Shown: piece by piece, positions 39,401-64,000 of the stretch | Layout of the letters: the number at the start of each line of letters is the position of its first letter | How positions within the stretch are numbered: the first letter of the stretch is position 1 | Assembly: GCA_036172245.1 (NCBI GenBank) | Contig: JAYWIR010000083.1 | Span: forward strand, 248,001-312,000 | Source: Raillietiella orientalis | Lineage: Eukaryota | Reading direction: 5' to 3' | DNA length: 64,000 nt | The notes under the pieces: generated by a model | What the model saw: only the letters and a program-made list of their open reading frames with translations | Database searches by the model: none | Told to the model about the DNA's origin: nothing | Made by a program: the position numbers and the translations under genes

Positions 39401-39517
39401 CGCGTTCGTTACGGACCCCTTCCCCAAATCAGGGGGCAGGCGATGCAAGGGGAACTCCTCGCAGAATTCCCTGACCGAGGCCTTAAAGAGGTCCCAATCA
39501 GCGAGATTGCGGAGCGT
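36463..39517 (-). mobile_element. 3' half of a Tx1-like LINE (subfamily A, nest level 1), decayed ORF2 and 3' UTR
   Basis: ORF2 from TLRNLADWD through APGED.LP, WRPI, DLHKAFD, RQGD, YLG and CAECGERETFPHLILEC, with stops and frameshifts. Confidence 0.92.
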
Positions 39518-41690: not shown

Positions 41691-42770
41691 TTTTTTTCTT
41701 TTCTGGCCTTTACTAGCTTCTATCCTTCTTCCTCTCCCGCGTCTTCAGCAGGTTTTTCCTCCGACGCCTGGGTGGGAGGAACAGGAGATGGCGGCTGGAG
41801 CCGGCCAGTTACGCGATAAGGTCTTTCGTCCTTTTTTCATTTTTTTTTGCCTGTGCCTTTTTGGCAGCAGGTGGCACCGGGGTGGGGCGTTTGGAGCACA
41901 CGACGAACGTGTCCCTTAACCCCGCACAAGTGGCACTCGATATTCGCGCACCGCTTGTGCAAGTGCCCTACTGCATCGCAGTAGCCACAATAGCGGGGTT
42001 TCCCCACGTACCAGAGGTCGACGGATTCATTTGCGACCTTCACTTTGTGCGGCAAGCCACTGCCCTCATTAACCGTTACACGCGCTGCGGTCTGGCTCCG
42101 AAATGGCTATTGAAGCCTTCGAAAATGGTAGGCATTGGCCACAACGCATGTATCTCACCGTACATACTGAGTTCATTACTCACCGCAGATCGCGTCATGC
42201 GGTTCGTAATGCCGGTTAGATGAACCACTACGGAGCGGTCCATGCTAACCGGCAGGATCTTCCGGCCATCCACATTCAGCGGGGTGTTAATGAGGCGCTG
42301 TGTTAAGGCTACGTCTTTGCAGACGACCTCCACGCGCTGCCCCCCGCTGAGTACGGAGAGGCCGTCAAGATCCTCCTCGCGTACAGGGAAATCCTGCAGT
42401 GCCCTACTAAAAGCCCGGGCGGTGCGACCATCAAACAGGGGTCCTACCTTATAAACCAGAGATGGTTTATATCCTGAGGCCCTGTAGGCCGCTTGCTTTG
42501 CCAAGGTTTCCGCGCTCGGCGCGGTAACCATGGCGCTCCACGTCCTCGGCGTTGCCAAGGATGATTCCGGGGCGCACGCCCCTGATTCTGCAGGCTGTGG
42601 GGGTGGGCAAGCCTCCCCCACACCTACCTCCATCGTGGTGTCCTCAGGCGTCGCTGCCATCGGACACCAACGATGTTCCACACGAACACACACAAAGAAA
42701 AAACCGCTTCCTGTCGACTCGCTCGGGAGGTTAGGAAAAACACGTCCGCTCGCCAAGGGATTTGGGGCTG
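41690..42770 (-). mobile_element. 5' UTR and partial ORF1 of a Tx1-like LINE (subfamily A)
   Basis: MAATPEDTTMEVG..YKPSLVYKVG..CGYCDAVGHLHKRC..CHLCGVKGH; 3'-truncated. Confidence 0.9.
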
Positions 42771-45700
42771 TCACCCGGGTACGCCCGCGACGTTAATTGA
42801 AAAAACTCTGCATAAACGTGGTACGAGGCCCCACTAACGGCCACACAACACCGGACCTGCAGGGACGCCGGGACGCAGCCCGGCGTGACGCTCCTCGGCA
42901 GTGGAGGGGGATAGGGATCAAAACACAAAAAAATAAAGATATGAAAAGAAAAACAAAAAGAGTTTGGAGGGAGGGGAAGGGATCACAATCCACTGGGAGG
43001 AGGGCCCATCCTTCGCAGGATGCCCTCGAGGTCCATCTTCATGCTTCCCAGATGGGGCCACCTCGCAGCTCTCCGCATGAAGCAGACCGCATACGGGATG
43101 ACATCCCTCGCGTTGGCATCCACTCCTTCGTCGCGAATGTCGCTCCAGGCCGCCACGATGCCCCGGATGCAGCAGAGGGCTGCGGCGGGTTGCAAGGCGT
43201 CCCGCATTAAGAGGGGCCGAAGAACGTCTCTGGGCGCGCTGCCCATTAGGGACCCGAGGGTCGTCCCGAACCGTTCCCACAGGGTTCGGAGGGCAGCACA
43301 GTCAACAAGTGGGGGAGCTATTCCCGCTCCCCACACCTGGCACACTCAGGCCTTACACTTCCCCGCGTCCATTGGAAGCGGTGCGCGTTGCAGGGTAGAC
43401 CCCAGTGCAACAGTAGCAGCGCCGACTCTTGCCACTTAAGGGGGAGAAGCCTGGATCCGATTAATATTGGGGGCCACTTCAGGTCATCCGTCGGGATGCC
43501 GAGCAGCTCGCCCCACCTACGAAGTCCACGCGGGAGGGCATTCGGGGTTGTGGCATCTGGCAGTTCTCCCATGGTCCAACCGCTCATCTTCTTTTCCTTG
43601 CCTGCGATTCGGCAGGAGACTTGCCACTTTGGCTTGCAGCCGCTGGTTAAAGCTTTTCGTAGGAAGGGCAGGGTCGAAGCTAGGGGGGTAGTCTCCACCC
43701 ACGTGCTCCTGGCGGGACACTCCAGAGTAGTCCGCAGTGTGCAGCAGGCGTTGGGGCCGAATCGCAGGCGGTTCCAGTCCGGGGAAGTCTGGAGGTTCAG
43801 CTTGGCCCACGTCGCAAAGGATTCCTCCAGCCAGGCGGAGGAGTTGGCGGGGCTGCATACCGTGCAGTTGTGGTCTCTGACCAGGGCTTCCATGCGCCCA
43901 AGGAGAAGGCCGCATCTTCTGACCTTCCTGCCAGAGCACAGAAGGTACGACGCGATTCCTTGCGTCCTGGACACACGGCTGGCGAGGATGCGGGCCGGAA
44001 CGCACCAAGGGGTGCTCCATGACTTTGCTGCGATGGCGAGGGTGCGCGATCGCAGCTGTATGTCCACGCGCTCCAGCGTCAGGAGGCCGAGACCGCCGTC
44101 CCGACGAGGAGCGCATAAGTCATCTAGAGGCACACGTGGCCTCACGCTGCCCCAGAGGGCGATGCGGAGTAGGTCCTTGGTCCTCTTTTTAATGTCACGG
44201 GGGACGGGGCAAACAAAAAGCAGGGGGCGGAGGATGGGAGCCGCGAACGCGTTCCACACCGCGTCCCGTTCCGGCAGAAGGAACTTGCCTTCCAGGAACG
44301 GGCCGATTGCCCACTCTACCTTTTGGAGACGACCTGACCAGGCTTCTGCGAGGCAGAAGTCCCCCAACGGGACACCCAGGTACTTCAGGTACCTGTCCGC
44401 GGGGATCCCCAAGCGGATCCAGTCAGGCCGTCCGACCCACGTCGCACCCACCGGTACGACCGACGACTTCGCCTTTTTTACCCGAAGTCCAGTGCCACGA
44501 CTTAGCAGGTCGAAGAAATCCTCGACTGCGGCTGCTGGGGCGGACATGGGCAACATGAGCAGAAGGTCGTCGGCGTATGCTGCTACGGCGGGCGTGCCGG
44601 GGCACGAGCTGGGCAGGGCAGCCAAAGTCACCCTGTACGCTCTCAGCACCAACTCAAAGTAGGTGCTAAAGAGCATGGGAGTGAGGCTATCGCCCTGCCG
44701 TATGCCCCGCCGCATCGGCACGCCGTACACCTGTTGGCTGGAAAAGCAGATGTTAAGGATGGCGTTGCTCCAGTAGGAGCGCAGGAAGGAGAGAAGGGAG
44801 GGTGGGAAGCCCATGCGACCCAGGAGCTCCAACAGTAGCTCCTGGTCAACGCAGTCGAACGCCTTATGGAGATAGACCGCGATCGCTAGGGCCCCCTTCC
44901 CAGCCCGGGTGTCCATTCCCAGCAAAGCTGGCGGTCCCAAAGTGGGGTTGCCAAACTTTCCCCCTGTGTCGTTCAGGCAGCGCTGCACATGGAACCATGT
45001 GCTCGCGAAGAACAGGTTGGCATCCATACTTCGCCCTGGAGCAGCGTATGTCTGCTCCGGGCTAATTATGGAGTCTGCCACCTGTCCTAGACGCGAAGCC
45101 CACAGTCCAGCGACCAGCTTGGCCTCCGTATTGACAATTGTGATCGGACGCCAGTTGCCTAGGGATCTCAGGTCTCCTCCCTTCGGCAGGAGCCTCACAC
45201 GGGCTGACCGAAACGAGGCGGGAACGTCGCCTTCGTCTCGGATCAGCCCGGTCAACTGGAGCACCAGGGGGGCCAGCTCTGTCGCGAAGCATTGAAAAAA
45301 TTCCGCAGGCAGGCCGTCCTCCCCTGGCGCCTCACGCCTCTTAAGCCTTTTAATACCGGCGAGAATTTCACCGGTAGAAAAAGGCTCGTCGAGGCTGATC
45401 CTCTCCTCCTCCCCTATTGCCTGGCCTCCATCCGGGAGCAGGAGCCGCGAGGCGTCTCGCTCTGGCGGTGCCCTAGCGTAGAGGGAGGAATAATAATGCC
45501 GCACGAGGTGCCTGATCGCGGATGGGGCCGATCGCTCCCGGCCCTGGTCGTCCAGCAAGCTGGCCGACCCGGATTGCCAGGGTTGGCGCTCGGCCCCAAC
45601 TCGATATTCCGCGAGGCGACGGACATTGTCGGTCCTCTCGTACCGGCGGGCCTGTAGATATGCCCGATGGTTCCGAGACCCTTCTTGGAATCCGGGGGGC

Positions 45701-48415
45701 AGGCGGTGCAGGGGAAACTCCTCGCAGAACTCGCGGACCGAGGCCTCAAGAGGTCCCAGTCTTGGAGACTTCGGAGGGTGACGCCTCTCAGGAATTCGCG
45801 AAGGTGTTCTTTCCCACCTGAGAGCCGAGTCCCGTCCCCAGGCAGCCGCCACGCCCTGGACGGGGGTCCTTTGTAGCGCGGGCAAACCTCGGCGATGATC
45901 CTGGAATGGTACGACAGCGTCGAGGCAACTTTTCCCCGTTTGCCTACCCGCGAGCACAGGTCGACATCCAGGAAGAAGTCGTCGATACAGCGGTCCATTC
46001 CCTCCGCGTCTGCCAACAAGTTGCGCGTGCGCATGGCAGCGCACAACTCGTTGGCCGTGCGTTCTTGTGCTTCGGCCTCACCTGACAGTAGACGGAGATT
46101 AAAGTCCCCAGCTATCAGGTGTGCCTTCCGCACGTTCGTATCGGCCATCCAGTCGCGTTTCAGGGTTTCCAGCAACCTGATACGGTCGCTGTATCCCCCT
46201 TTCCCGCCTGGGGCGTACACGTTCGTGACGATCAATTCGATTGGGTCGGACCAGCTGAGAGTCAGCTGACCGACCCGACCGTCGTCATCGAAGCGTACGC
46301 CCTTCACGGCAGCGTCGATGGCCGGCTTCACCAAGAACGCGACCCCGCAGGTGTTGCGGGCGCCGCATCGCCAATACAGTCGACCCCCCGCGATCGCCTC
46401 GATCTCCTGGATGTCTGCCGCGGTGAACACGTGGATCTCCTGCAGCAGGGCCAGGTCGAAGTCACGCAGGGTGTCGGCCGTATCTCGTCTGTTGCCGTCG
46501 TCGCGCAGCCCGTTGACGTTCCAACTGGCCACGCGGATTCGACGGCGACAGGCGAGCCCAGGTGTTATTCCTGGGAAATCGGCTCTGCGGCGTCCGCCAC
46601 ATGTTGGAGCGGGACGCTAGGTGGAGGAGGAGGGACAGGTGCCTCTAGCACCTGGTCACCCTCTTCCATCGGTAACGGCACGTCGGGCGGTTCACCCTCA
46701 GGTGGGGTCGCGCCTACCTGCTGGCCCTCCTCCATAGGGGTGGACTCCTCAGGGTCCGCGACGGCAGGGGGGATTTCGCCTTCCTGCTCACCCTCCTTCA
46801 TGGGGGTGTCCTGCTCGACGGCTTCCGCGGGTGGGAGCTCCCCCTCCGGGATTCCCACGCTGCCGGCGACTTCCTGCTGCTCCTCCACGCTCGTGGAGGG
46901 GAGGCGCTTCCTCGGCTTTTGGGACTTGCGTCCCGTCTTCCGGGGTGTGCCTTCGAGGAGGAGGATGTACTTCCGGCCCCCAGTTTTAACTCACCTGCGG
47001 GGGCCTTGTTTACTGGAGCCGGTCTTCGCACGGCCTTGCGCGAGAGGTTCTCACGCTCAGCCAGCGTGGCCGCGAGCTCCTCCGCCGCCTTCGCGAAGGC
47101 GGCGTCCTCGACGGCGGCGAGAGCGTCGCGCGTCTCACCCTCTGTGCAAACAGAGGGTTCGCCGTCGCGAACCTCGGGCGCGGCGGAAACGGCGAGGGGA
47201 GGCTCGTCTCCCCGGGTGGCAGCCTCGGGAACGCTGATGCGCTCCAGTGCTACCGAGCACTCGCCGAGAGTTTTAGATCGCGGACCAGGTTTTTTCGCCT
47301 TCGCGACCGTCTTTTTCTCCGCCTTCTCTTGTGAACCCTTTTTGGGTTCCTTTCTGGCCTTTACCAGCGTCCATCCTTCTTCCTCGGCCGCGTGTTTGGC
47401 GGTTTCTTCCGCTGCAGCCTGGGTTGGAGGAGGAGGAGAAGGCTGCTGGGGTCGGCCATTCTCGCGATGACGTCTTTCGACCTTATTCATCTTTTTCGAC
47501 TGTGCCTTTTTGGCAGCAGGTGGCACTGGGCTGGGGCGTTTAGGGCACACCCGACGGACGTGTCCCTCTTCCTCGCACAAGTGGCACTCGATATTCGGGC
47601 ACCGCCTGCGCACATGCCCTACTGCATCGCAGTAGCCACAATAGCGGGGTTTCCTCACGTACCAAGGGTCGACGGGCTCCTTTCCGACCTCCAGTTTGTG
47701 GGGTAACCCAACACCCTCGTTCACAGTGACACGCGCTGCTGCCTGGCCACCAAAGAGGCTTTGATAGCCGTCAAAAATGGTTGGCTTTGGCCACAGCGCG
47801 TGCACATCTTCGTATTTCCTCAATTCCGCGTTCACCGCAGAGCGCGTCATGCGGTTTGTGATCCCCGTTAGATGGACCACTACGGAGCGGTCCATGCTAA
47901 CGGGTAGGATCTTTCGGCCAGCCACATTCAGCGGGGTGTTGATGAGGCGCTGCGCAAGGGCTACGTCTTTGCAGACGACCTCCACGCGTTGCCCCCCGCT
48001 GAGTATGGCGAGGCCGTCAAGATCCTCCTCACGCACGGGGAATTCGTGTAGTGCCTTGCTAAAGGCACGCGCGGTGCGACCGTCGAACAGGTTTCCTACC
48101 TTATAAACCAGGGATGGTTTATATGCGGAGGCCCTGGAGGCCGCTTGCTCAGCCAAGGTTTCCGCGCTCGGCGCGGCGACCATGGCGCTCCAGCTCCTCG
48201 TTTTGGGCGACGAGGGCGATTCCGGGGCGGATGCCCCTGATTCTATAGGTCGTGGGGGGGGCTAGCCTCCCTCACGCCTACCTCCATCGTGGTGTCCTCT
48301 GGCAGCGATGCCATCGGACACCAACGATGTGAAAAAGCACACACTGAACCAAAAAAACAAACGCTTTCCGCTGCTCGTTCGGGGAGGGCCGGAAAAACAC
48401 GTCCGCTCTCGAGGA
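42771..48415 (-). mobile_element. Full-length Tx1-like LINE (subfamily A, level 3) with frameshifts
   Basis: 5' UTR, ORF1 ~48310-46565, ORF2 ~46565-42983 (APE, RT YADD, CCHC), and a 3' UTR with the terminal hairpin. Confidence 0.95.
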
Positions 48416-50665
48416 GCGGGATTTGGGAAGGGGCCGCGTAACGAAAGGTGCTATCTTCAGGCCCGACCTTACGCGAGAACCCCGGATATGCGGACTTTAG
48501 CAGAGTATCGAGCAGGAGCCGAGAGGCAAGCCTGGCATTCCGGGACGGCTAGCTTACTGGACGACCAGGGCCGGGAGCACTCGGCTCTTGCTCAAAAGCG
48601 CGGGATTGTGAACAAATTTTACTTCTCCCTGTACGCCAGGGCGCCTCCGGAGCGAGACGTCTCACGACTTCTGCTTCCGGAAGGTGCTAAAGCGATCGTG
48701 GAGGAGGAGAAAAGAAGCCTCGACGAGCCTTTCACGATGAACGAGATCCTAGCGGCCATCGGAAAGCTCAAGAGGCGGAATGATCCAGGGGAGGACGGCC
48801 TGCCCGCGTAGTGTTACCAAACTTTCGCGGCTGAGCTTATCCCCCTGCTACAGCAACTCACCTTGCTGATTCGCTAGACAGGTTACGTTCCCACCTCGTT
48901 TCGTTCTGCAAAGGTGCGGCTCCTCACGAAGGGAGGAGACCTAAGGAGCATGCACAACTGGCGTCCCATCACAATAGTGAATGCGGACGCCAAGTTGATA
49001 GCCAAGATGTGGGCAGAGCGTCTGGGACGGGTTGGAACAGACATACGCTGTTCGCGGGCGAAGCATGGAGGCGAACCTGTTCCACGCTTCCACATGGTTA
49101 GAGCTCCAACAAGGAAGGAGCTTATTGAGCAGTCGGAATTCCGGTGCGTCTGTTGGCGGGAGACGGAACGGTCGGGTGGGGAAGGGAGCCCTTGCGGTCG
49201 CTCTCGACTTGCGTAAAGCATTCGACAGCGTCGACCAGAATCTTTTGCTGGAGCTTCTGGAACGCTTGGGCTTCCCGGCCTCTTTGTTGGCCTACCTGAG
49301 CTCCAGCTGGCGCGACGCGCTCATTAATGTTCTTTTCAGCGGGCAAACCGTGCACGGAGTACCGGTGCGACGCGGCATACGGCAGGAAGACAGCCTGAGC
49401 ACCCTGCTCTCTGGCGCCTTTTTCGAATTGGTGCTGAGAGCGTACAGGGAGACTCTTGCGCACCTGCCGTGCGATTGCCCCGGTACGCCTGCGGTTTCGG
49501 CGTACGCGGACGATCTTCTGCTGCTGCTGCCTATGCCCACCCCGGCCTCGGCGGTCGAGGACTTCTTCGACCTGCTGAGTCGTGGAACAGGACTGTCGGT
49601 GAACAGGGCGAAGTCGTCCGTAATGCCAGTCGGAGCGGCGTGGGCAGGGCAGCAGGACTGGGTCCGTTTGGGGATCCCCACGGTGAGGTACTTCAAGTAC
49701 CTTGGTGTGCCGTTGGGGGATTACTCCCCTGCGGAAGCGTGGTCCGGCTGCCTTCAGAAGGCTCAGGAGGCGATCGGCCCGTTCCAGGACGGCAGGTTCT
49801 TCCTGCATGAACGGGCCGCGGCGTGGAACGCGTTTGCGGCACCCCTCCTTCGTCCCTTGCTTTTTGTTTGCCGTATCTCAGCGGAGTCAAAGAAGAGGAC
49901 GAAGGACCTCCTGAGGAGCGCCCTTTGGGGCAGAGGGAGGCCCCGAGTCCGTCTTTCGGACTTGTGCGCTCCTCGTCGGGATGGTGGTCTGGGCCTGCTG
50001 ACGTTGGAGCGGCTGGAGCTACAGCTCCATTTCCGAGTTGTCGCCTTTATGGCAGAAAATTGGTGCACCCCTTGGTGCCTCCCTGCACGTCTCCTCGTCG
50101 AGCGGGCCACCGGCAATGCGGAACTCTCGTGCTACTTTGCACTCCGAAGCCCCATCTGCCACTGCGGACTTCAACTTCGGAGGGTGGCCAAGCTCGTGAA
50201 GGACAACTCGACGCGGATCCTCGCACGCCCCGGGAACGGTCCTGCCTAGCTGCAGGAACCCGTGCGCACGTGGGCGATGATTCAGGAGCAGAGCTCGCAA
50301 CACGAGCGAATAGCTCTGTTCGGGCCGCATGTCCACCGCACGCTCCGAGAAATCATCGAGAATCCCCGAAGGAGAGCGTGGGCACAAAGAACCTCCCTTT
50401 CTGCGGTACTGCCTACCCTATGGGAACATCTGGGCAGCGACATCGCGGCACAATGGGAGGTTACTGTCAAGATCGCCAGCAGGGCAAAGAAGATCGGGGA
50501 TTGGAGAACGGGTCAGCTCACCAACGCGGCGACCCCGAGGACCACCATAAATGGACTCTGGCGCTGGGGAGAGCTACTTGATGTTCCAGAGGAACATCTC
50601 GAGTGGCCCTCGGTGCTCATGGACTCGCGCACCCTCTTCATGAAGTGGCAACAGTCGGCACTGCT
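48416..50665 (+). mobile_element. Middle ORF2 segment of the level-2 (+) Tx1-like LINE
   Basis: GFGKGPRN.. through DLRKAFD and YADD to ..KWQQSAL, with stops and frameshifts. Confidence 0.92.
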
Positions 50666-50909
50666 TTTACACCCGGGTGCGCCGGGGCGTTTATTTCTTT
50701 AATAAAAAAATAAACAAGCAAGTGTAGGGCTATCTCCCCTACAGTGTTCAGAACATGTTCTTCTGAACTCGCCGAGTGGGCAGCACGCAGGCTCCCAAGG
50801 TCGACTCGGCAGCGGAGGGGGAAGGGACAAATAGAAAAAAAGAAGAAAACACTATTTACAAAAGCAGGGAGGGGTTGGGGAGGGGATTACGTTCCGCTGG
50901 AGACGTCCT

Positions 50910-53900
50910 TTACATCCTTTGCAGGATGCCGGCAAGTTCAATCTGCATGTGTCCCAGATGGGTCCATCTGGCTGCCGTCCTCAAGAAGCGCAGGGCGTAG
51001 CACAAGATGTCCCTATCGTTCGGTCCATAAGTGGCGGTGCTCCAAGCCGCTACAATCCCTCGTAGGCAGCAGAGGGCTGCAAGGGCTGCGGCAGGCGAAA
51101 GGGCGTCGCGCACGAAGAGGCGCTTTAAAACGTCTCTGGGAGCGTGCAAGGGTGCACCAACGGCTGTTGCAAAGCGCAACCACAGGGGCCGGAGAGCAAC
51201 ACAGTCAACGAGCAGGTGCGGGAGAGTTTCTCGTTCCCCGCACCTGACACAGTTTGGGTCCACAACCCCCCTCGTCCAATGAGAGCGGCGGGCGTTGCTG
51301 GGGAGTCCCCAGTGCAACACCAGGAACGCCGACTCCTGCCACTTTAGGGGAAGGGCCCGAGTATTCCTCAGCACTGGCGGCCACTCGAGTTCATCCCGCG
51401 GGATGCACAGCAGCTCGCCCCAGCGCAACAGTCCTCTCGGTGGGTAACTTGGGATCGCGGCATCAGCAAGCTGACCCGTGGTCCAACCACCTTGTTCTTT
51501 CTCAGTGTCTCTGATCGTACACCGGACCTCCCACATGGCCGGCTGGCTACTGCCCAGATGTTCTTTGAGGTGGGACAGAGCTGTGGCAAGGGAGGTCTTC
51601 TCAGCCCACGCACTCAAGGCGGGCTGCACGATGATGTCCTGCAGCGTGCGGCTCTTATGATAGGAGTGCAGCATTCGCTGCCGCAACTCCGGGCTCGCTT
51701 TCTCGATCTGCGCCCACGTGCGAAGGCTTTCCTGCAACCAGGAAGTGCCGTTCGCGGGCCGGCAGGAGATCCAGGTGTTCTTCCTGGTCAGCTTCGCCAC
51801 TCGCCGAAGAGCCAGTCCGCAGTGGAACAGGTACCGGCGTTTGCGGCGCGCTAGGAAGGTAGACAGTCCCGCGCAGCCGCCGACTCGCTGAACCAGGCAT
51901 CGTGCAGGTTCGCACCAGCTGGCGCTCCACAACTTCGCCACTTGGGCGATTGTTCGGAACTGCAGCTGCAGTTCGAGACGCTCCAGCGTGAGGAGGCCAA
52001 GGCCCCCATCGCGACGAGGGGCGCACAAGTCCTTCCAACGCGCGCGGGGCCTTCCTCTGCCCCAGATGGCGATTCTGAGGAGGTCCTTTGTACGTGTTCT
52101 CACACCACGGGGTGGGGGACAAACAAAAAGCAAGGAGCGAAACAGGGGGGCCACGAAAGTGTTCCACAGCACGGCCCGTTCCGGCAAGAAGAACTTGCCA
52201 TCCAGGAACGGGCCGATCGCTCTCTCGGCCTTTTGGAGGCAGCAAGACCATTGTTCCGCTGGGGAGTAGTCCCCCAACGGCACACCGAGGTACTTAAGGT
52301 ACCGTACCGTGGGGATCCCCAAGCGAGACCAGTCTAGCTGCCCTGCCCACGAGGAACCGACTGCAACAACGGACGACTTTGCTCTGTTCACCTCCAGTCC
52401 TGTCCCGCGACGCAGCAGCTCGAAAAAGTTTTCGACCGCCGACGCCGGGGTGGACATGGGGAGCAGCAGCAGAAGATCGTCCGCATACGCCGCCAAGGCC
52501 GGTGTACCTGGGCACACGCGCGGCAGGCGACCAAGAGTCTCCCTGAATGCCCTCAGCACCAACTCGAAGTAGGTGCTGAAGAGCAAGGGGCTCAAGCTCT
52601 CACCCTGCCGTATCCCGCGGCGCACCGGCACACCGAACACGTTCCTTCCCCTGAAAGAAATGTTGGTCAGCGCGTCGCGCCAGCAAGAGCGCAGAAAGGC
52701 CAATAAGGAGGCCGGGAAGCCCAAGCGCTCCAGACGCTCCAGCAGGAGCTCCTGGTCGACACTGTCGAATGCTTTCCGCAAATCGACAGCGACCGCGAGG
52801 GCCCCTTCTCTCTCCCGACTATTCCGCGAACCACCAGCGGACGTCCCGCAAATCGGGCTGCCGACCTTGTTTCCTCCATTCATTCTGGTTCTTTGAAGTT
52901 CGAACCAGGTGTTCGCGAAGAGCAGGTTGGCGTCCATGCTTCGCCCGGGAACAGCGTAGGTCTGCTCCGGGCTGATGAAGCTTTCCGCCACTAGCCCCAT
53001 TCGCTCCGACCATAGCTTCGCAACCAGCTTGGCGTTCGCGTTCAGTACGGTAATCGGACGCCAATTGCTGAGGTTCCGTAAGTCTCCTCCTTTCGGTAGG
53101 AGACGCATACGTGCCGATGGGAAGGAGGCGGGAACGTCTCCTGTCTCCCGGATCAGCAGCGTTAGCCGCTGCACCAGGGGAGCCAGCTCCGCCGCGAAGC
53201 ACTGAATAAACTCCGCGGGCAGGCCGTCTTCCCCCGGTGACTTCCGCCTTTTGAGCTTCCCGATTGCGGTGATGATTTCACCCATCGTGAAAGGCTCGTC
53301 CAGGCGTACTCTCTCTTCTTCCCCGATCGCCGGGGCACCGTCCGGAAGCAAAAATTGGGAAAATTCCCGGTCCGGAGGCACCCTGGTGTACAGGGAAGAA
53401 TAATAGCCGCGCACTAGGCTACTCACCTCTGCCGGGGCCGAGTGCTCTTGGCCTTCGTCGTCCAGCAGGCTGGGCGACCCCGATTGCCAGGCCTGCCGCT
53501 CGGCCCCGGCTTTAAATTCCGCCAGTCTTCGGACGTCTGGTGTTCGGGAGTAACGACGGGCCTGCAGGTAAGCCCTATCGTTCCGAACACCTTCTCCAAC
53601 TCCTTTCGGGAGACGGTCCATGGGGAACTGTTGGCAGAACTCTCGCACCGAGACTTTCAAATCGTCCCAGTCGTCGAGCGTCTGCAGGCTGAAACCTCGC
53701 AAGAACGCGCGGAGGTGTTCCGCTGCGCCTGGCTTGGTCAGCCAGTCCCCCGGTCGACGCCACGCCTGCGCGGGGGGCCCCCTGTCGCGCGGGCGAATGA
53801 CGAGTTCCACACGGGAGTGGTCGGAGACTGCGGACTGTATCTTACCTCGCCTGCCCACGCGACAGCGCAGGTGATCGTCGAGGAAGACGTGGTCCACGCT

Positions 53901-54476: not shown

Positions 54477-56077
54477 TACTGCTGGGAAAGTGATGCTGCG
54501 TCTCCCGCCTCACCTAGGGGCGGGACGCCGGCTTTCTCCTGTGCGGTGGGGGGCGGCTCGACGACCCCCTCCGTCTCCATCGGCTCCGTCTCGACCGATC
54601 GTGGGAGTTCAGGACTCGTGTCCATCTCTCCCACGCTCGCCGCACCCTCGTTTCCGGAGGATTCCTCTTCCTCGGAGGAGACGATCCTCCTCGGGTTACG
54701 GATTTTCCTTCCGGTCTTCCTCGGGGGTGCAGATGCGGATGGTGCGTGTCCGGTCTCCGGGTCCGAGTCCGAGGTCCCGTTCCCCCTCCTCTCGGCCGGA
54801 CGTCGAACGGCCTTCTTCCCGACCTTTGCGAGAGGCTGCTGACTGGCGGCGAGCTCGGCGGCGGCTTTTGCAAAGCCCGCGTCATCGCGGCTCTCCCCCT
54901 CGCCGCAGCCCTCGGACGCTGTTTGCACAGCGACGGGGCTGTCAGCGTTGTTGCACACGGCAACGTCCTGTTCGCACGGCACTTCGGCGTCTGCAAGGCG
55001 CTCCAGTGCGACCGTGCATTTTTTCAGTCCCTGCTTTTTCGCGGGTTTCGCGGCTTTTGCAGGGACTTTATTTTTATTATTTACGTCCTTTTTTTCTTTC
55101 TTTTTCTTTGGACTGACCTTTTGCCAGCCAGGCTCTTCTCCTTCCACCTCGGTTGCCTGCGTTTCTGCAGACGGGGTGGTCGGGATGCCCTTTTTGGCTG
55201 GCTCCGGGTCAACCGTATTTTCAGACGGCGGCCTGGTCTTGCCAGGCTTCTTGCTCGCGTTCGTGCCGCTCACGGCAGCAGCCGGCGCGCGCGAAGTCTT
55301 TTTGGGGCACACCTCTTCCGTGTGCCCGATTGCCTCGCACTTGCGGCAGGTGATGTTGGGGCAGCGTTTCTTCACGTGCCCCGTACCATCACAAAACGCA
55401 CAGTATTTGGGTTTCCCCAGATACCAGATGTCGACAGAATCTCCGTCGACTACTAGTTTATGGGGAACCTCAATGTCCTTATTCACAGTCACACGTGCCG
55501 CGGCGAGTCCGCTCAGGAGTCCGTCATAAGTACGGAACCTGTTCGGCTTCAGCCACAGCGCGTGTATGGTGCCGAATTTGCTGAGTTGAGCCCTGACGGC
55601 GCTCGGTGACATCCGCACGGTGATTCCACGGAGGTGGAGAACTATTGAGTTGTCCACCGGGACAGGGAAGATCTGGCGGCCCTCGACCCTGACGGGGGTT
55701 CGCAGCAGTCTTTGCGCCAACCCTGCTTCTTTGCAGGTCAACTCGACATGCTGTCCCCCGCTGCGGATGGAGAGACCCAGCAGATCCTCCTTGTTAACGT
55801 TCAAACGGTGGAGCTCCTTCTCGAAGGAGCGCGCCCCACGGTCATCAAACACCCGGCCTACCTTATACAGCAGACTCGGGTTGTAGTTGTAGGCCTTGTA
55901 GGCCTGGGCCTCGGCGATGGCCGCTGCAGATGGCGCGGCGACCGCGGCGCTGTAGTCCCTCGCCGGCGCGGGGGACGAAGCTTTCGGGGCAGGTGCCCCT
56001 ATCTCCATGGGTACGGGGGACGTTCGCCCGGCCCCCACCCCACATTCACTAGTGGCGGGATCAGGCATTTCTGCCAT
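54476..56077 (-). CDS. ORF1: nucleic-acid-binding protein with two CCHC knuckles (533 aa)
   Basis: The ATG at 56077 (MAEMPD, as at 59631) is the homologous start. CAFCDGTGHVKKRC and CRKCEAIGHTEEVC. The stop overlaps the ORF2 ATG. Confidence 0.92.
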   Translation of the reverse strand: MAEMPDPATSECGVGAGRTSPVPMEIGAPAPKASSPAPARDYSAAVAAPSAAAIAEAQAYKAYNYNPSLLYKVGRVFDDRGARSFEKELHRLNVNKEDLLGLSIRSGGQHVELTCKEAGLAQRLLRTPVRVEGRQIFPVPVDNSIVLHLRGITVRMSPSAVRAQLSKFGTIHALWLKPNRFRTYDGLLSGLAAARVTVNKDIEVPHKLVVDGDSVDIWYLGKPKYCAFCDGTGHVKKRCPNITCRKCEAIGHTEEVCPKKTSRAPAAAVSGTNASKKPGKTRPPSENTVDPEPAKKGIPTTPSAETQATEVEGEEPGWQKVSPKKKKEKKDVNNKNKVPAKAAKPAKKQGLKKCTVALERLADAEVPCEQDVAVCNNADSPVAVQTASEGCGEGESRDDAGFAKAAAELAASQQPLAKVGKKAVRRPAERRGNGTSDSDPETGHAPSASAPPRKTGRKIRNPRRIVSSEEEESSGNEGAASVGEMDTSPELPRSVETEPMETEGVVEPPPTAQEKAGVPPLGEAGDAASLSQQ

Positions 56078-56152
56078 CCCCCGACCACTGATGCACCGCA
56101 CTACACCAATAAAGTCGAGCGAGTCAGGAGCGCGCAGAGAACACGTCTGACC

Positions 56153-56813
56153 GTCGTCGCTGCTGGTGTTGCATTGGGGACTTCCTTGCAACGCCCGCCG
56201 ACACCACTGGACGCGGGGGGGTGTCAACCCTAATTGTGGCAGGTGCGGGGAGAGGGAATACCTCCCCCACCTGTTAGTGGTTTGTGTTGCCCTCCGTCCC
56301 TTGTGGGAACGCTTTGCCGCAGCCCTGGGGATCCCCGGAGGCAACCCCAGAGACGCTTTGCGCCCCCTCTTCGTCCGTGACGCCCTGCCTCCAGCGGCCT
56401 CGCTTGCAGCCCTGTGCTGCCTACGCGGGATCGTCGTGGCATGGAGCAAAGCGACGGGAGGATCCAGCGACAGGGATGCCAACGTGTATGCCTCCCGTTT
56501 CCTCAGGATGGCGACGCGATGGCCCCATCTGGAACCGCACACGCAGAAGCAGCTTGCCGGCATCCTCCAGAGTATGACGGACCCTCCCAGCAGACTGTGA
56601 TCCCTTTCCGCTCCCTCCCTGATTTTTGTTTATTTTTTTGTTTTCTTTTTGTTTCGTTCCCCCTCCCCTCTGCTGCCGAGGTCGACCGCGCCGGTCTGCG
56701 CACCGGTAGCCCGGCAGGCTATATCTTTCCAGGGCGTGGCTGGACTACTGGTGCAGTCACAGATTATATAGGTTTATTCGTGAGAATAAAGGTCCTGGCG
56801 CTCACGGGTTTCA
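56153..56813 (+). mobile_element. 3' end of the level-2 (+) Tx1-like LINE
   Basis: SSLLVLHWGLPCNARR..CGRCGEREYLPHLLVVC..stop at 56600, then the 3' UTR with AATAAA at 56785. Confidence 0.92.
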
Positions 56814-59722
56814 AGCGAGATTCCGGAGGGTGACGCCTCTCAGGAATTCGCGAAGGTGTTCCTTCGCATCTGAGAGGCGCGTCCAGTCCCCAGGCAACCG
56901 CCACGCCCTGGACGGGGATCCGTTGTCGCGCGGGCACACCTCGAATATCAATTTGGAATGGTCAGACAGTTTCGACGCAACTTTCCCCCGTTTGCCGACC
57001 CGCGAGCACTGGTCGACGTCCAGGAAGACGTGGTCGATGCTGCTGACCATTTCCGGGAGTTCCCCTAACAAGTTGCGCGTGCGCATGGCAGCGCACAACT
57101 CGTTAGCCGTCCGTTCCTGTGTGCGTGGCTCACCTGATAGCAGGCGGAGATTCAAGTCTCCCGCTATCAGGTGAGCCACGCGCACGTTCGCTTCCACCAG
57201 CCAGTCGTGCTTCAGGGTTTCCAGGAACGCCGCGCGTTCCCGGTACCTGTTATAACCGCTCGGGGCGTATACGTTTGTTACGACGAGGTCGATTGTGTCG
57301 GACCATGTGAGAATCAGCTAGCCGACACGACGGGCTTCGTCAAAGCGCACGCCCTTCAAGGCAGCGTCGACCGCCGGCTTCATGAAAAACGCGACGCCGC
57401 AGGTGTATCGGGTGCCGCATTGCCACACCAGCCGCCCCCCTGCGATCCTCTCGATCTCCTGGGCGTTCTCCCCGGTGATCACGTGGATCTCCTGCAGGAC
57501 TGCCTGGTCGAAGTCACGCAGGGTGGCTGCCGTGTCCCGTCTGTTGCTGTCGTTGCGCAGCCCGTGGACGTTCCAACATGCCACACGCAATCGACGACGA
57601 CAGGCGAGCCCAGGTGTTATTCCCGGGAAAGTGGCAATGGGGCTCCCGCCACCTGGTCGGGCGGGACGGATGGAGGCATGGGGGCACCGTTCAGCGGTTC
57701 TCTTACTTCCATGGGGGCCGATTCCTCGGCGGACCGCAACGGTTGAAGGGAGCATGCTTCACGCACCTCCATCCCCTCTTCCATGGGGGCCGATTCCTAG
57801 GCTGCGTTGACGGCAGGGGGGAGCGGTTCTCAGCTATCTGCTCCCCCTCTTCCATGACCATCTCCGCAGGCTCCACCGGTGGAAGGGGGAGGCAATGCCC
57901 TACCTGCTCCCCCTCCTCCATGGGGGTGGCCGGCTGCTCGGTGGCGGAGGGTGGGAAAATTTCTCCCTCCGTTCCCACGCTGCCGGCTTCCCCCTCGGCT
58001 GCCGGTGCGTCCCCCTCGCTCTTCGTCGGGATGCGCCTCTTGGGATTCTTGGACTTCCGTCCAGTCTTCTTCGGAGGCGCCTCCGTGGAGGACGCACTTC
58101 CGGCATCCGGGTCGTGGTCACCTGTCGGAGATGCCCTGGTCGCGGCCGGCCTTCGCAAGGCCTTTCGCGCGCCGTTCTCACGGTCGGCGAGTTCGGCCGC
58201 GAGCTCTTCCTCCGCCTGCTGGAAGGCGGCCTCGTCGATCTTGGCGAGCGCGTCGCGCGGTTCCCCCTCTGTTTGCACAAAGGGTTCGCCTTCCGTGATC
58301 GCGTTATCGTCGGCATCGACGCGGGGGATATCTCCCCCGGTGGCGGTCTCGGGTACCTCCACACGCTCCAAAGCGACCGAACATTCGCGGAGCAACGCGC
58401 GGCGTTGTCTCCTATTAAAAGGAGACGTCGCGGGTTTCGCTGTCTACCCTTCGGTTTTCTTGGTTTTCTTGGCTTTAGGCTTCGCCTTCTGCCAGCCTTC
58501 GCTCTTTTCAGCGTCGTCGGTAGATTCCACGACCGGCGTTTGCTGCACGGGCTCGGGCTCCGGTTGTGGGTTCCGTCTCACGGGTGCCTTCGCAGGCTTT
58601 TCCGTAGCCCCCGCGCGTTTTTCTTTGGCCTTTTTCAAGGCAGCGGGAGCCGGGGGTTCGCGCTTCGGGCACACTTTGCGGAGGTGGCCCTTCTCTCCAC
58701 AGTGGAAACACTGGATGTGAGGGCACCGCTTTTTCAGGTGCCCTGTGGAATCACAGTGTCCACAGTACTTGGGCTTGCCCACGTACCAGACGTCGACGGT
58801 CTCGTTGCCGACGTCTAGTTTGTGGAGTAGCCCACCGTTTTCGTGGACGGTTACACGCGCACCAGCCATGCCACTAAACAGTCTTCCGTAACTCTGGAAG
58901 ACGTTGGGCTTGGTCCATAGCGCGTGAACCGTTCCGTGTTTTCCGAGTTCCTCCTGCACGTCGGCTTTCGACATGCGGAGGGTGACTCCCGTGAGGTGCG
59001 TCACCACGGAGCGATCCTCCGTTACCGGGAAAACCTTTCGGCCTTCCAGTGTGATTGGCGTATTCAGGAGGTGTTGAGCAAGGCTTGCATTTCTGCAAGT
59101 CAGCTCCACACGCTGACCACCACTCAACACGGAAAGACCTTCCAGGTCTTCCTCTTTTACGTTCAACCGCTGCAACTCCCTTTCGAAGTTGCGAGCGGTG
59201 TTCCCCACAAACAGATTGCCTACCTTGTATATAAGGGACGGCTTCTATCTCTGCTCCAGGTAGGCTTTCTGCTCGGCGAGGGCTGCAGGAGATGGGGCTG
59301 CAGCCACTGAACTCCAGGTCTTCGGCGATGCCGAAGACGCATTCGAGGGTGCAGGTGCCCCCTTCTTCAAGGAGGCGGTTGCGCCCTTTTCCAGGGTTGC
59401 GGTTGTCCTCTTTTTCAAGGGGGCGGTTGCACCCTGTTCCAGCGGGGCTTTTGCGTCCTTTTTCAAGGGGGCCTTTGCCCTTGCTTCCGAGGCTGCGGTT
59501 GCCCCCTTTTTCAGGAGTGCGGCTGCCGTAGCCTCCGTGGGGGCGGTTGCCCCCACCTCCGTGGGTTGGGGAGAGGAGCAAGCCTCTCCCCCTCCTATAT
59601 CCATCGCGGTGTCCTCAGGCATTTCTGCCATTGGACACCGCAGATGCTATACACACAAACACAATCGAAACCAAACGCTTTACACCAGGCGCGGAGGAGC
59701 GCTAGAAAAACACGTCGCACGT
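56814..59722 (-). mobile_element. 5' half of the level-1 (-) Tx1-like LINE (ORF1 59631-57617 disrupted, APE to TLRNLA)
   Basis: ORF1 CCHC knuckles, VACWNVHGL, GDLN and SDHS; ends at FLRGVTLRNLA. Confidence 0.92.
59353..59520 (-). repeat. In-frame 24-bp tandem repeat (about 7 units) in the ORF1 N-terminus
   Basis: ALLKKGAT/AASEARAK/APLKKDAK/APLEQGAT/APLKKRTT/ATLEKGAT/ASLKKGAP. Confidence 0.85.
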
Positions 59723-62076
59723 CAAGTTGATAGCAGGGCTATGGGCTTCGCGTCTGAAGCAGGTGGCAGAATCCGTAATTAGCCCGGAGCAGACTTATGC
59801 TGTTCCCGGGCGAAGTATGGATGCCAACCTCTTCTTCGCAAGCACATGGGTGCACCTGCAGAGAAGAGAGAAGAAAGGGATCGGGAAATTCGGCAACCCC
59901 ACATTGGGGCCGCCAGCCGGGCTGGGAAGGAACCCCCGGGCGGGGAAGGGGGCCCTAGCGCTCGCAGTCGATCTCCACAAGGCGATCGACTGTGTAGACC
60001 AGGAACTCCTTTTGGAGCTCCTGGGTAGCATGGGCTTCTCACCCTCCCTGATTTCCTACCTGCGCTGTTGCTGGCGGAATGCGATGATTACCGTGTCTTT
60101 CAGTGGTCACAAGGTGTATGGCGTGCCGGTTCCGCGAGGCATAAGGCAGGGAGATAGCCTCAGCCCCCTGCTCTTCAGCACCTACTTTGAGTTGGTGCTG
60201 AGAGCGTACAGGGTGACTTTGGGCCCCTTGCCGAGCTCGTGCCCCGGCACGCCCGCCGTAGCAGCGTACGCCGACGATCTTCTGCTCTTGTTGCCAATGT
60301 CCACCGCGGCAAAGGCGGTCGGAGACTTCTTCGATCAGCTCAGCCGCGGGACCGGACTGCAGGTCAACAGGGCGAAGTCGTCGGTTGTGCCAATAGGTGC
60401 GGCGTGGGCAGAGCAGCAGGACTGGGTCCGTCTGGGGATCCCCACGGCGAGGTGCTTCAAGTACCTTGGTGTGCCGTTGGGGGACTACTACCCTGCGGAA
60501 GCGTGGTCCACCTGCCTCCAAGAAGTCGAGACGGCGATCGGCCCGTTTCTGGAAGGCAAGTTTCACTTGCCGGAACGGGCTTCGGTTTGGAACCCTTCGC
60601 GGCCCTCATCCTCCGCCCCTTGCTTTTTGTTTGCCCCCCCACCGTGGAATCCAAGAAGAGGACAAAGGACCTCCTCCGTATCGCCCTTTGGGGCAAGGGG
60701 ATACCCCGAGTCCCTCTGAAGGACTTGTTCGCTCCGCGTCGGGACGGGGGTCTTGTCCTCCTGACGCTGGAGCGCGTTGAGAAGCAGCTGCGGTAGCGAA
60801 CCCTCGCCATCGCAGCGAAGATGTGGAGCACCCCTTGGTGCACTCCGGCTCGCCTCCTGGCCAGCCGTGTGTCCCGGTGCGATGGACTCGCGTCTTTTCT
60901 TCCGAGCCGTGGCCGGAAGACGCGAAGATGCGGCCTACTGTTCGGGCGCATGGCAACATTGACCAATAAGAACAGCTGGATGGTTTGCTGTTCCGCCAAC
61001 TCCCCCGCCTGGCTGGAGAAGAATATTGGAACGTGGGCAGTGGTTAACCAGACAAGCCACGAGACGTGGAATCGTCTCCGATGCAGCCCCTACGCCCGCT
61101 GCACGCTGCGGAATCTCCTGGAGAGTCCAGCAAGATGCACGTGGGCAGAGACGACCTGCCTATCTACGGCGCTGCCCTTCTTGAGGAGGGCACTTCACAG
61201 CAGCCGGACGCCAAGGTGGCAAGTCTCCTGCTGCATCGAGGGACGCGAGAAGTTGATTAGCGGCTGGACAACAGGAGAACTGTCCGATGCCACGACCCCG
61301 AGCGTCCAGCCGCGAGCATTAGTAAGATGGGGCGAGCTGCTCGCCATCCCCAGGGATGAGCTGAAGTGGTCCTTGCTTCTCCAGGAATCCAGGATCCTGC
61401 CCCTCAAGTGGCAACAGTTGGCGTTGCTGCTGTTGCAGTGGGGTCTACCCTGCAACGCGCGCCGCTTCCACTGGACGAGGGGAGCTGTGGATCCTGCGTG
61501 TGCCAAGTGCGGGGAGCGGGAGTCTCTCCCCCACCTTATTGTGGATTGTGCTGCCCTTCGACCCCTTTGGGAACGGTTCGGGACGACCCTCGGGCTCCCT
61601 ACGGGCAGCACCCCCAGAGACGTACTTCGGCCCCTCTTCGTGAAGGACGCACTGCAGCCAGCCGCAGCCATCGCAGCCTTGTGCTGCGTCCGTGGCATCG
61701 TGGCGGCATGGAGCGACGCCAACAACGAAGGAGTGGGTCCACAGGCGAGGGATGTCATCCCGTATGCGCAACGCTTCTTGCGAAGAGCTGCCGGATGGCC
61801 CCAACTGGGGAATATGCAGACAGACCTTGAGGGCTTCGTTCGAGGGATGGGCCCTCCCCACAGCGACCAGTGATCCCTTCCCTGCCCTCCAACTTTTTGT
61901 TTGTTTCTTTTTATTTTTTCTTTTTGTCTTATCCCCATGCCCCTTCGCTGTCGGGGAGTGCCACGCCGGGCTGCGTCCTTGTGTCCCGACAGGTCCTGTG
62001 TTTACGGCCGTGGTGGGGCCTTGTACCACGCATGTAGAGTTTATTAATAAACGCCCCGGGCGTACCCGGGTGATAA
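59723..62076 (+). mobile_element. 3' half of a Tx1-like LINE (subfamily A, level 0): RT to 3' UTR
   Basis: KLIAGLW..YADD..CAKCGERESLPHLIVDC, stop at 61873, AATAAA and terminal hairpin. Confidence 0.93.
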
Positions 62077-64000
62077 CGCCGAATCCCTTGGCGAGTGGAC
62101 GTGTTTTTCCTTCGCTCCCGAGTGAGTCGACAGGAAGCGGTTTTTTCTTTGTGTGTGTTCGTGTGGAACATCGTTGGTGTCCGATGGCAGCGATGCCTGA
62201 GGACACCACGATGGAGGTAGGTGTGGTGGAGGCTTGCCCACCCCCGCAGCCTACAGAATCAGGGGCGTCCGCCCCGGAATCGCCGTCGCCGCCGAAGGCG
62301 AGGAGCTGGAGCGCCATGGTGGCCGCGCCGAGCGCGGAAACCATGGCCGAGATGGCGGCCTACCGGGCAGTAGAGTACAAGCCCAGCTTGGTGTACCAGG
62401 TAGGCCCCTTATTTGATAGAAAAACGGCACGCGCGTTTTCGAAAGCGCTGCAAAACGCCGAAGTAAGAGAACAAGATCTTCACGGCCTGTCCGTTCTCAG
62501 CGGAGGTCAGCGAGTCGAGGTGGTGTGCAAGGAGATCACCTTGGCTCAGAGTCTGATCACCAACCCGTTTGACGTCGACGGCCGCAAGATCTTGCCTGTG
62601 ACGATGGACCGCTCCGTGGTGGTCAATCTCACTGGAATAACGAGCCGTATGACTCGCTCTGCGGTAGCACAATAACTTCGGAATTTCGCCGAGGTGCACG
62701 CTAAGCCAACAAACTTCGAAGGCTTTAATAGCCATTTCGGAGGCCAGGCTGCAGCGCGGGTAAGCGCGAATAAGGACTGTGGGCTTCCCCACAAGCTGGA
62801 GGTCGCGCAAGAGAGCGTGGATCTCTGGTACGTGGGAAAGCCCCGGTATTGCAACTACTGCGATACCGTAGGACACCTTCGCAAGAGGTGTCCTAACATC
62901 CGATGCCACATGTGCGGGGAGAAGGGCCACGTTCGATGTGTTTGCCCAAAGCGCCCCATCCCGGTTCCTCCTGCCGCCAAAAAAGCGCAGGGGAAACGCG
63001 CTGTGAAGGTCACAAGACCTAAGGCGGACGCTGGCCGGCTTAAGCTGCCGGATCCTCAATCTCCAAAAGAAAAAACGGAGGATAAATTTTCCCAAGAGGC
63101 GGAAGGTGAAGAGGGCTGGCAACTTGTAGCCGCCAGAAAAGAGAAAAAAGCTCCTTGAAAGGAGAAGAAAGAAAAGTCGACCGCTAAGGCAAAAAAACCC
63201 GGGCCGCGTTCGAAAACCGTACGCGAGTGCACGGTGGCATTGGAACGTATCGTCGTTCCTGAAGATGCCACCCGGGGCGACGAACCTCCCCTTGCCGTTT
63301 CCGATGCGCCCGAAGTTCGCGACGGCGAACCCTCTGTGCAAACAGAGGGTGAGCCGCGCGACGGGCCGGTCGACACCGAGGACGCCGCGTTCGCGCAGGC
63401 GGCGGAGGAGCTCGCGGCCACGCTGGCGGAGCGTGAGAACCGCTCACGCAAGGCCGTGCGAAGGCCTGCTCCCGCGAGAAAGGCCCCCACAGGTGAGTTG
63501 GACCTGGGGGCCCGAAGCACATCCTCCTCCTCGGAGGCACCCCCCAGGAAGTCGGGACGCAAGTCCCAGAAACCCAGGAGGCGCCTACCCTCCACCAGCG
63601 AGGAGGAGAAGCAGGAAGGTATTGGTAGCGTGGGAATCCCGGAGGGGGAACTCCCACGCTCGGAAGCCGTCGAGCCGGCCACTCCCATGGAGGAAGGTGA
63701 GAAGGGACGCGATGTCCTCCCTGCAGTCGCTGAGCCTGAACAGCTTGCCCCCATGGAGGAGGGCCAACAGATAGGCGCGACCCCACCTGAGGGTGACCCG
63801 CTCGACGCTCCTTTATCCATTGAGAAGGGGGACCAGGTGCATGCAGCGCCTGACCATCCTCCTCCACCTAGCGTCCCGCCCCTACAGGTGGCGGACGCCG
63901 CATCGCCATCTTCCCAGGAGTAACACCTGGGCTCGCCAGTCGCCGTCGGATTCGTGCCACCTCTTGGAACGTCAACGGGCTGCGCGACGACGGTAACAGG
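62077..64000 (+). mobile_element. 5' UTR, ORF1 (62184-63923, disrupted) and ORF2 start of a Tx1-like LINE (subfamily A), running off the window
   Basis: MAAMPEDTTMEVG..CNYCDTVGHLRKRC..SSQE*, then TAACACCTGGG..SWNVNGLRDDG. Confidence 0.93.

Follow-up and report, generated by a model that had tools for sequence, protein, structure and literature searches.

A candidate antisense ORF2 target site of a LINE subfamily in a nested LINE cluster of Raillietiella orientalis

The 36.4-64 kb part of a 64,000-nucleotide (nt) stretch of the Raillietiella orientalis genome (contig JAYWIR010000083.1 of assembly GCA_036172245.1, positions 248,001 to 312,000) holds a nest in which copies from four lineages of long interspersed nuclear elements (LINEs) of the L1 superfamily, deeply diverged from one another, are inserted into each other antisense. 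We refer to the whole stretch as the window; coordinates are those of the whole window, and all copy counts and flank comparisons are confined to it. One of the four lineages, subfamily A (copies Q, E2, E5 and F2), adjoins at its ends a 15-nt sequence that encodes, antisense to the elements, the residues A-K-G-F-G of the linker between the apurinic/apyrimidinic-type endonuclease (APE) and the reverse transcriptase (RT) in the second open reading frame (ORF2). The full-length copy E2 is inserted at this position in the ORF2 of another lineage, N, between two copies of a true 10-bp target-site duplication. The explanation that we favour, with moderate confidence, is that subfamily A prefers one APE-RT linker position of a related host ORF2, which it enters antisense, and that double insertion at this position makes head-to-tail pairs.

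The 15-nt site at the ends of subfamily A

Three stretches read as a preliminary description of this DNA had stated: 42752-42768 is GCCAAGGGATTTGGGGC, 62077-62092 is CGCCGAATCCCTTGGC on the plus strand and GCCAAGGGATTCGGCG antisense, and 48416-48430 is GCGGGATTTGGGAAG. The first two are the spacers of two head-to-tail pairs. Spacer 1 (42752-42768, plus), in which 42752-42766 reads GCC AAG GGA TTT GGG, codons A-K-G-F-G of N in the host sense, stands between Q (41690-42751, minus), a subfamily-A fragment that covers the first ~1,062 nt, and E2 (42769-48408, minus; 5,640 nt), a full-length copy whose ORF1 of 461 amino acids (aa) is open, whose ORF2 is frameshifted and whose 3' hairpin is followed by TGACAGC. 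Spacer 2 (62077-62092, minus), in the host sense GCC AAG GGA TTC GGC (G), stands between F2 (59721-62076, plus), a 3' part that starts at ORF2 aa ~482, ends in ...CCCGGGTGATAAC and is 76.8-79.7% identical to E2, and E5 (62093-64000, plus), the 5' part of a copy that extends past the window end. Both spacers encode KGFG and differ only synonymously, as had been described; their first 15 nt carry two synonymous third-position differences.

The exact 10-mer GGGATTTGGG bounds E2 on both sides, the left copy of the duplication lying at 42757-42766 (plus) and the right copy at 48418-48427, and when 20,000 pairs of 25-nt windows were drawn at random from the nest, 33 shared an exact match of at least 10 nt. 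E2 is a full-length subfamily-A insertion in N, bounded by a true 10-bp target-site duplication. The stretch 48416-48430 opens a plus-strand ORF2 fragment, AGFGKGPRNER..., whose aligned counterpart in the intact 1188-aa ORF2 of copy E3 is LPKGVGEGVRNDR (aa 289-301). This part of N (48418-50664, plus; ORF2 aa ~292-1051) begins with the right copy of the duplication and is in frame to the right of E2 as GGA TTT GGG AAG GGG CCG CGT AAC GAA AGG (GFGKGPRNER...). M, in which this part of ORF2 is uninterrupted, has GATTTGGGGAAGGGG at the corresponding place, and the bases at 48418-48427 are accordingly native ORF2. Joined to the right flank in N, spacer 1 gives L-A-K-G-F-G-K-G-P-R-N-E-R, against L-P-K-G-V-G-E-G-V-R-N-D-R in E3 (aa 289-301). 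On the simplest reading, spacer 1 is N's own sequence, codons about 290-294 (A-K-G-F-G), and the last two bases (GC, 42767-42768) probably belong to the 3' tail of E2, ...GGGTGACAGC.

The end of the element had previously been placed at 48415, which does not hold: the shared 5' end begins GAGCGG at 48408, and positions 48409-48417 (plus) are, read directly, a 9-nt filler (TCGAGGAGC) outside the element. The 5' junction of E2, CCGCTC-TCGAG-GAGCGG (48403-48419), is a 6-nt inverted repeat, in which GAGCGG at 48414-48419, made up of filler and the first two G of the duplication, is an inverted copy of the first 6 nt of the element, CCGCTC (48403-48408). This repeat may reflect snap-back during second-strand synthesis.

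Read in element orientation, each of the three stretches immediately precedes a subfamily-A 5' end, which is true of 3/3 such ends in the window and of none of the three non-A ends (M, N and E3). The motif CCC(A/G)AATCCC, antisense of Gly-Phe-Gly codons, precedes every subfamily-A 5' end: ...GGGTGACAGCCCCAAATCCCTTGGC/GAGCGG for Q (5' end at 42751), ...GGGTGATAACGCCGAATCCCTTGGC/GAGTGG for E5 (62093) and ...CCCCTTCCCAAATCCCGCTCCTCGA/GAGCGG for E2 (48408). On the other side, the 15-mer adjoins both subfamily-A 3' ends (2/2) at the same nucleotide, after GGGTGAYARC, the sequence of both tails, and adjoins none of four other 3' ends (M, N, E3 and the copy old12k). The next 5' end then follows directly after the 15-mer, with those of Q and E5 meeting it at the same nucleotide, and dimer 2 (F2-spacer 2-E5) repeats both junction positions of dimer 1 to the nucleotide. 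These are the features of tandem pairs made by double insertion at a regenerated target, as in R1 and P elements: the 15-nt spacers consist of host codons and the single insertion of E2 in N duplicates 10 of those 15 nt, in a sample of two pairs and one host. Two other kinds of target were considered for the 10-mer. No tRNA was found in the window, and a telomere-like target was dropped, the 10-mer being, to our knowledge, no permutation of any known telomere repeat.

According to the model that we favour, the nick in the sense strand of the host would directly follow the codon for the second Gly in A-K-G-F-G (GCC AAG GGA TTY GGS^); in the duplex GCCAAGGGATTTGGGAAGGGG, the predicted nick falls after GGG on the ORF2 sense strand. 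The primed strand would be the host sense strand ending in ...GGATTYGGS-3', which would leave the new element antisense to its host, and a second-strand break 10-15 nt upstream would duplicate the linker codons around the insertion. The target would thereby be regenerated on both sides and could be hit again, yielding head-to-tail pairs spaced by exactly the duplicated 15 nt. The preference may be a property of the endonuclease, or it may come about when a read-through copy of the target at the 3' end anneals to the nicked host strand. In line with work on R1 elements, a transcript that extends into the duplicated 15 nt would be complementary to the nicked strand and could guide precise priming.

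The same 15 nt at identical junctions of both pairs is the signature of double insertion at a regenerated target. The nested map, the duplication of E2 in N, the position of spacer 1 in the frame of N, and the coincidence of two A-type 5' junctions and both 3' junctions with the same host nucleotides are directly supported; to these we add, as inferences, an independent origin of the two dimers and a priming of Q at an internal A-run with a target deletion of ~440 nt.

Independent insertions or shared descent

The preliminary description had counted three recurrent targets. All three sites exist, but 42752-42768 and 48416-48427 together make up a single target split by one insertion (E2 in N), and the three occurrences are not three independent events. 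On the simplest reading, the linker of N took part in two events within 15 nt, the insertion of E2 and the joining of the 5' end of Q 5 nt to the left of the E2 duplication, in the same N codons. Recurrence by chance is unlikely; by our own estimate, two A-type 3' junctions would fall at one nucleotide of a ~5.6-kb element about 1 time in 10,000 by chance if they were independent. One ancestral dimer for both pairs is disfavoured because Q is closer to E2 (81.8%) than to E5 (74.4%), and independence is also favoured by the extension of E5 beyond the truncation point of Q and by the duplication that E2 has of its own in N. Local conversion fails to explain the shared spacer, since the near-identical block of Q and E5 (about 42600-42730) ends short of it. 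The two synonymous third-position differences between the spacers fit, weakly, two host ORF2s that diverged under selection (p ~0.05-0.1, our own estimate). The family as a whole is not site-specific, since the three non-A elements (M, N and E3) lie at other sites; a 3' junction at a fixed target nucleotide is found in 2/2 subfamily-A cases, possibly by shared descent, and in 0/4 of the other lineages.

Several observations weigh against a preference exercised in independent events. The events number two or three and come from a single 28-kb nest, with no solo subfamily-A copy for comparison. The dimers are colinear over ~3.5 kb, from ORF2 through the spacer into ORF1, and may share descent from a tandem master, and dimer 2 keeps no host sequence past 15-16 nt. 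The far end of Q is an internal A-run of ORF1 (GCCAGAAAAGAAAAAAAAG; 41680-41700), native in E2 and E5, which abuts N at aa 142, and ~440 nt of N are missing at this junction; the arrangement suggests that reverse transcription was primed at this A-run and that ~440 nt of target were lost. The 5' junction of E2, with its 10-nt duplication and 9-nt filler, is unlike those of Q and E5, and four of the five ORF2 copies that span the site are unoccupied. A search of the window for the spacer 16-mer at up to 3 mismatches found only the two spacers, where 2.92 chance matches were expected. When the homologous linker site was scanned in E3, E2, the downstream part of M and the copy old27k, it matched the spacers at 9-12 of 16-17 positions, or at 12-14 of 19-20 with the adjoining CTC, and was always tied with unrelated positions or one match above them. 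For spacer 1, the linker site ranked in the top three in E3 and M; with spacer 2 it did so only when the adjoining CTC was included, in E3 and old27k; in the scan of E2, it fell outside the top three for either spacer. Since similarity to other copies is near background, the link to ORF2 rests mainly on the flank in N and on the reading frame, the likeness of the spacers by themselves to the linker codons of other ORF2 copies (9-12 of 16-17) being weak.

That the pairs were carried to their places as tandem units is the main competing explanation, which we entertain tentatively. A master pair or array of subfamily A, located elsewhere, would have been made once at an ORF2 linker, and read-through or template-jump retrocopies of it would bring along 3' end, 15-mer and 5' end together; E2-spacer-Q would be one such retrocopy, primed at the A-run of the second unit, and F2-spacer-E5 another, 5'-truncated one, with the 5' end of E2 joined at the KGFG codons of N via the homologous carried spacer. 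LINE retrocopies are often 5'-truncated, as F2 is, Q ends at a native A-run abutting aa 142 of N as a primed 3' junction would, a single event would account for Q, E2 and the missing 440 nt, and the colinearity of the dimers extends from ORF2 across the spacer to ORF1. However, between CCCAAATCCC and the 5' end of E2 stand GCTCCTCGA and not the TTGGC of the spacer, identity between E2 and Q is only 81.8%, with Q, E2 and E5 forming mosaics of each other, so that adjacent units are not recent duplicates, and the origin of the master pair would still take two insertions at the site. The earlier proposal that the spacers are target sequence from repeated insertion is partly supported, by the antisense linker codons, the E2 duplication and the same 15 nt at identical junctions; the two colinear dimers could descend from carried tandem units instead of independent hits.

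It is very unlikely, in our judgement, that the 16-17-mer is part of subfamily A itself, as a 5' leader or 3' tail, with copies joined end to end and the match at 48416 a microhomology. All three A 5' ends and both A 3' ends do touch CCC(A/G)AATCCC, and there is no solo A copy to show an end without the 15-mer. Against this, the stretch from the 10-mer to GAGCGG in the 5' flank of E2 has neither the length nor the sequence of the spacer, the 10-mer at 48418-48427 keeps the frame and is, as the uninterrupted M indicates, native to ORF2, M, N, E3 and old12k finish with the hairpin and short A-run and lack the 15-mer, the spacers differ at 4/17 positions compared with ~3-4% in the adjoining block of the 5' untranslated region (UTR), and an exact 10-nt microhomology at the right codons would be improbable. 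An invariant 16-17-mer within the element, which the preliminary description had named as a refutation of its proposal, is contradicted by the four other 3' ends (M, N, E3 and old12k; 0/4 carry it) and by the 5' end of E2, which is preceded by another sequence, the 9-nt filler, and not by TTGGC. We regard it as highly improbable that there is no targeting at all, with twin priming, template switching or DNA rearrangement in a LINE cluster behind the junctions and the KGFG coincidence due to chance. Full 5' ends abut antisense ORF2 elsewhere too, at aa ~265 (N/M), ~482 (M/F2) and ~1050 (E3/N), and two such junctions, viewed singly, resemble twin-priming products. The junctions at aa ~265-270 nevertheless pair as a single insertion of N in M, with a 16/18 duplication (2/4,000 in the null) and a continuous M ORF2, Q and the adjoining ORF2 of N do not come from one RNA (66.5% for N-E2 against 76.8% for E2-F2), and two A-type 3' junctions at the same nucleotide carry, if they are independent, the estimate of ~1 in 10,000 given above. 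Twin priming was rejected on the same grounds, Q (subfamily A) and the adjoining N ORF2 being of different lineages and the aa ~265-270 junctions resolving as N in M. An inverted DNA duplication of one dimer into the other was also rejected: E5 passes the truncation point of Q, E2 has its own duplication in N, and identity is a mosaic of 58-100%.

Targeting could also take a more specific form, in which subfamily A would be a homing LINE that disrupts a rival ORF2 at the host target L-A-K-G-F-G (GCC AAG GGA TTY GGS), with read-through transcripts that could guide the next integration by base pairing; we consider this rather unlikely. The ORF2 linker of subfamily A itself reads L-P-P-G-F-Q (CCC CCC GGA TTC CAA), and because it matches the target at 7/15 positions, subfamily A would spare itself.

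Searches beyond the window added no further copies to this comparison. A 22-mer of the 5' UTR common to Q, E2 and E5 had 0 matches in metagenome contigs, the pattern of a 3' end, 8-28 nt and a 5' end returned nine loci (L001-L009) in metagenome contigs, all of them unrelated sequences, and a two-part 5' UTR pattern had 0 matches in genome contigs. The sequencing run X1 contained 9% of the sampled words, and 468 of its contigs map to 41600-50700 at 80% likeness (13 at least 99% alike, 313 less than 90%); they are all short and uninformative at 42752-42768 and 48409-48427, with no joint reported at the dimer junction, and we draw no conclusion from them.

The element family and the layout of the nest

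The intact 1188-aa ORF2 of E3 (50910-54476, minus; P0001) carries an Exo_endo_phos domain (PF03372) at aa 13-220 (E 2.7e-14) followed by RVT_1 (PF00078) at aa 461-733 (E 1.6e-21), with a weak zf-RVT match in Pfam. This order, an N-terminal endonuclease and then a reverse transcriptase in ORF2, makes the family an APE-type LINE of the L1 superfamily. Its nearest solved structure is human L1 ORF2p (8sxt_A, E 2.9e-46, RT region), and the APE part also matches the L1 endonuclease; a protein search returned 43 matches, the best ~25% identical and none of them named. ORF1 has two CCHC knuckles. Target-site duplications (E2 10 nt; N 18 nt, matching at 16/18; E3 ~12 nt) and 5' truncation (F2) are present, as in the L1 superfamily.

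Identity matrices resolve four lineages. Members of subfamily A are 70-82% identical among themselves, and M, N and E3 are three separate lineages, 50-71% identical to A and to one another. Q, for instance, is 81.8% identical to E2, 74.4% to E5 and 55-57% to N and E3, and the N ORF2 next to Q is 66.5% identical to E2, compared with 76.8% between E2 and F2. The 5' end of subfamily A is GAG(C/T)GGACGTGTTTTTCC, also written GAGYGGACGTGTTTTTCC; a scan for the 5'-end motif found five sites where 0.72 were expected, and a sixth, diverged 5' end (E3, 56151) was read directly. Copies of the family end, on the 3' side, in a hairpin, CCCGG(G)-loop-C(C)CGGG, followed by TG and a short A-rich tail of 3-5 A, and the sequence past the tail varies: GCAGTGCC (E3), CCTCACC (M), GCGAGATT (N) and CACGACG (old12k). 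The hairpin is kept in E2, F2, E3 and M (near 42772-42790, 62055-62073, 50668-50690 and 36461-36480, respectively) and decayed in N and old12k, and AATAAA-like motifs lie upstream of it. In the 5' UTR, Q and E5 (42565-42730 and 62114-62280) are 90-100% identical over the first ~150 nt, with flanks at 58-85%, and the first 500 nt of Q, E2 and E5 form a mosaic in which Q is like E5, then E2 like E5, then Q like E2. This mosaic suggests that lineages recombined or that gene conversion acted locally.

The nest was resolved from blastn and tblastn maps together with the junction sequences. M is split by N (39519-56813, plus). Its downstream part (36458-39517, minus; placed by tblastn and blastn maps and alignment of the 3' end) runs from ORF2 aa ~265 to the 3' end, ...CCCGGGTGAAAAA, and its upstream part (56814-59720, minus) holds the 5' end GTGCGACGTGTTTTTCT at 59720, ORF1 and ORF2 aa 1-~270. 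The 18-nt duplication that N made in M has its left copy, AGCGAGATTGCGGAGCGT, at 39500-39517 (plus) and its right copy at 56814-56831, within the upstream part of M; the two are identical at 16/18 positions, which 2 of 4,000 random window pairs equalled, and the ORF2 of M is continuous across 39517/56814 once N is taken out. The complete 5' end of M meets F2 head-to-head at ORF2 aa ~482 (59711-59730), where no target-site duplication is visible; the other flank of M is unrelated DNA.

N itself is interrupted twice. Its 5' part (39519-41689, plus; 5' end GAGCGGACGTGTC..., ORF1 of 458 aa, ORF2 aa 1-142) is separated from the middle part described above by the block Q-spacer 1-E2 (41690-48417), and the middle part from the last (56152-56813, plus; ORF2 aa ~1050 to the 3' end, ...CACGGGTTTCA) by E3 (50665-56151, minus), an intact element with an ORF1 of 533 aa. 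The flanks of E3, CAGTCGGCACTGC (50652-50664) and CGTCGTCGCTGC (56152-56163), form a ~12-nt duplication matching at 9/12 positions ungapped, a level equalled by 112 of 4,000 random pairs, and the ORF2 of N picks up at the same residues beyond it. Of the copies in the window, E3 seems the youngest, and it may be active. A listed 695-aa ORF at 54476-56563 overruns the 5' end of E3 into antisense N and is spurious in its upstream portion. Wherever the host of a nested insertion is visible (four cases: N in M, and E3, E2 and Q in N), the insertion is antisense to it, a uniformity that could reflect a strand preference of the nick or the loss of same-orientation nests by recombination.

Elsewhere in the window, a different LINE family occupies 28110-36480 (minus), with an RVT_1 ORF at 29246-31672 and a 947-aa ORF at 31434-34277 without a Pfam match; its ORFs at 34689-35318 and 36016-36480 have motifs that we take to resemble an R2-type restriction-like endonuclease, and the 3' end of M is inserted into the latter. 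Older fragmentary copies of this LINE family or related ones, and another RT fragment, lie at 24618-27668 (minus), 11636-12300 (plus), 8414-8656 (minus) and 17692-18273 (plus). In the copy at 24.6-27.7 kb, the linker site is intact (LPPGFGEG), and an unrelated 1.7-kb interruption stands further downstream; this interruption, at 25459-27198, is not of the LINE family studied here.

Comparison with other LINEs and significance

Most L1-type LINEs integrate with little sequence preference, and those site-specific L1-type LINEs that we know of are directed to multicopy genes of the host or to simple repeats. Tx1L (in the Tx1D transposon), Keno, Mutsu and TRAS/SART are APE-bearing LINEs that have a repeated genomic sequence as their specific target, and in families of the Tx1 and R1 groups nearly all copies sit at the target. 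Here, the candidate target lies instead in the coding region of a sister subfamily, antisense. Human L1 ORF2p is the best solved relative; the present family differs from it in ending with a hairpin and 3-5 A rather than a long poly(A), and its ORF1 has two CCHC knuckles.

Two systems come closest to the locus. As far as the account in PMC5932611 goes, head-to-tail copies of R1 are spaced by a 33-nt ribosomal DNA (rDNA) duplication, which is explained by double insertion. R1 of Drosophila rDNA is likewise an APE-type LINE with a short, fixed target duplication between head-to-tail copies, 33 nt in R1 as described there and 15 nt of ORF2 here. Its target, however, is a host multicopy gene that holds essentially all copies, whereas here it is the antisense ORF2 of another LINE, used by one subfamily and seen in two pairs. 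Zepp and ZeppL of green algae, L1-superfamily elements, pile up by nested insertion into GC-rich clusters in the accounts given by PMC8226300 and PMC3446292, and nested insertion into copies of the own family is also encountered here (N in M; E3, E2 and Q in N). Compared by description only, and as far as those accounts extend, Zepp clusters are tandem arrays mostly of 5'-truncated 3' ends, in contrast to the full-length antisense nests and recurring 15-nt site found here. The locus unites features of R1 and of Zepp, and it differs from both in its coding-sequence target in a sister lineage, its antisense orientation and its full-length nested copies.

Even if the spacers prove to be carried sequence, the locus is a clean example of nested antisense LINE insertions with readable duplications. 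If subfamily A does act as a homing LINE, this would represent competition between LINE lineages by targeted insertional inactivation. If the preference that we favour is real, it would provide a small, assayable endonuclease target, a duplex of 15-20 bp, and would show double insertion seeding tandem LINE arrays. Self-nesting LINE clusters have been proposed as centromere components in some algae, and a subfamily that lands on the coding sequence of another LINE would give a sequence-level mechanism for the growth of such clusters.

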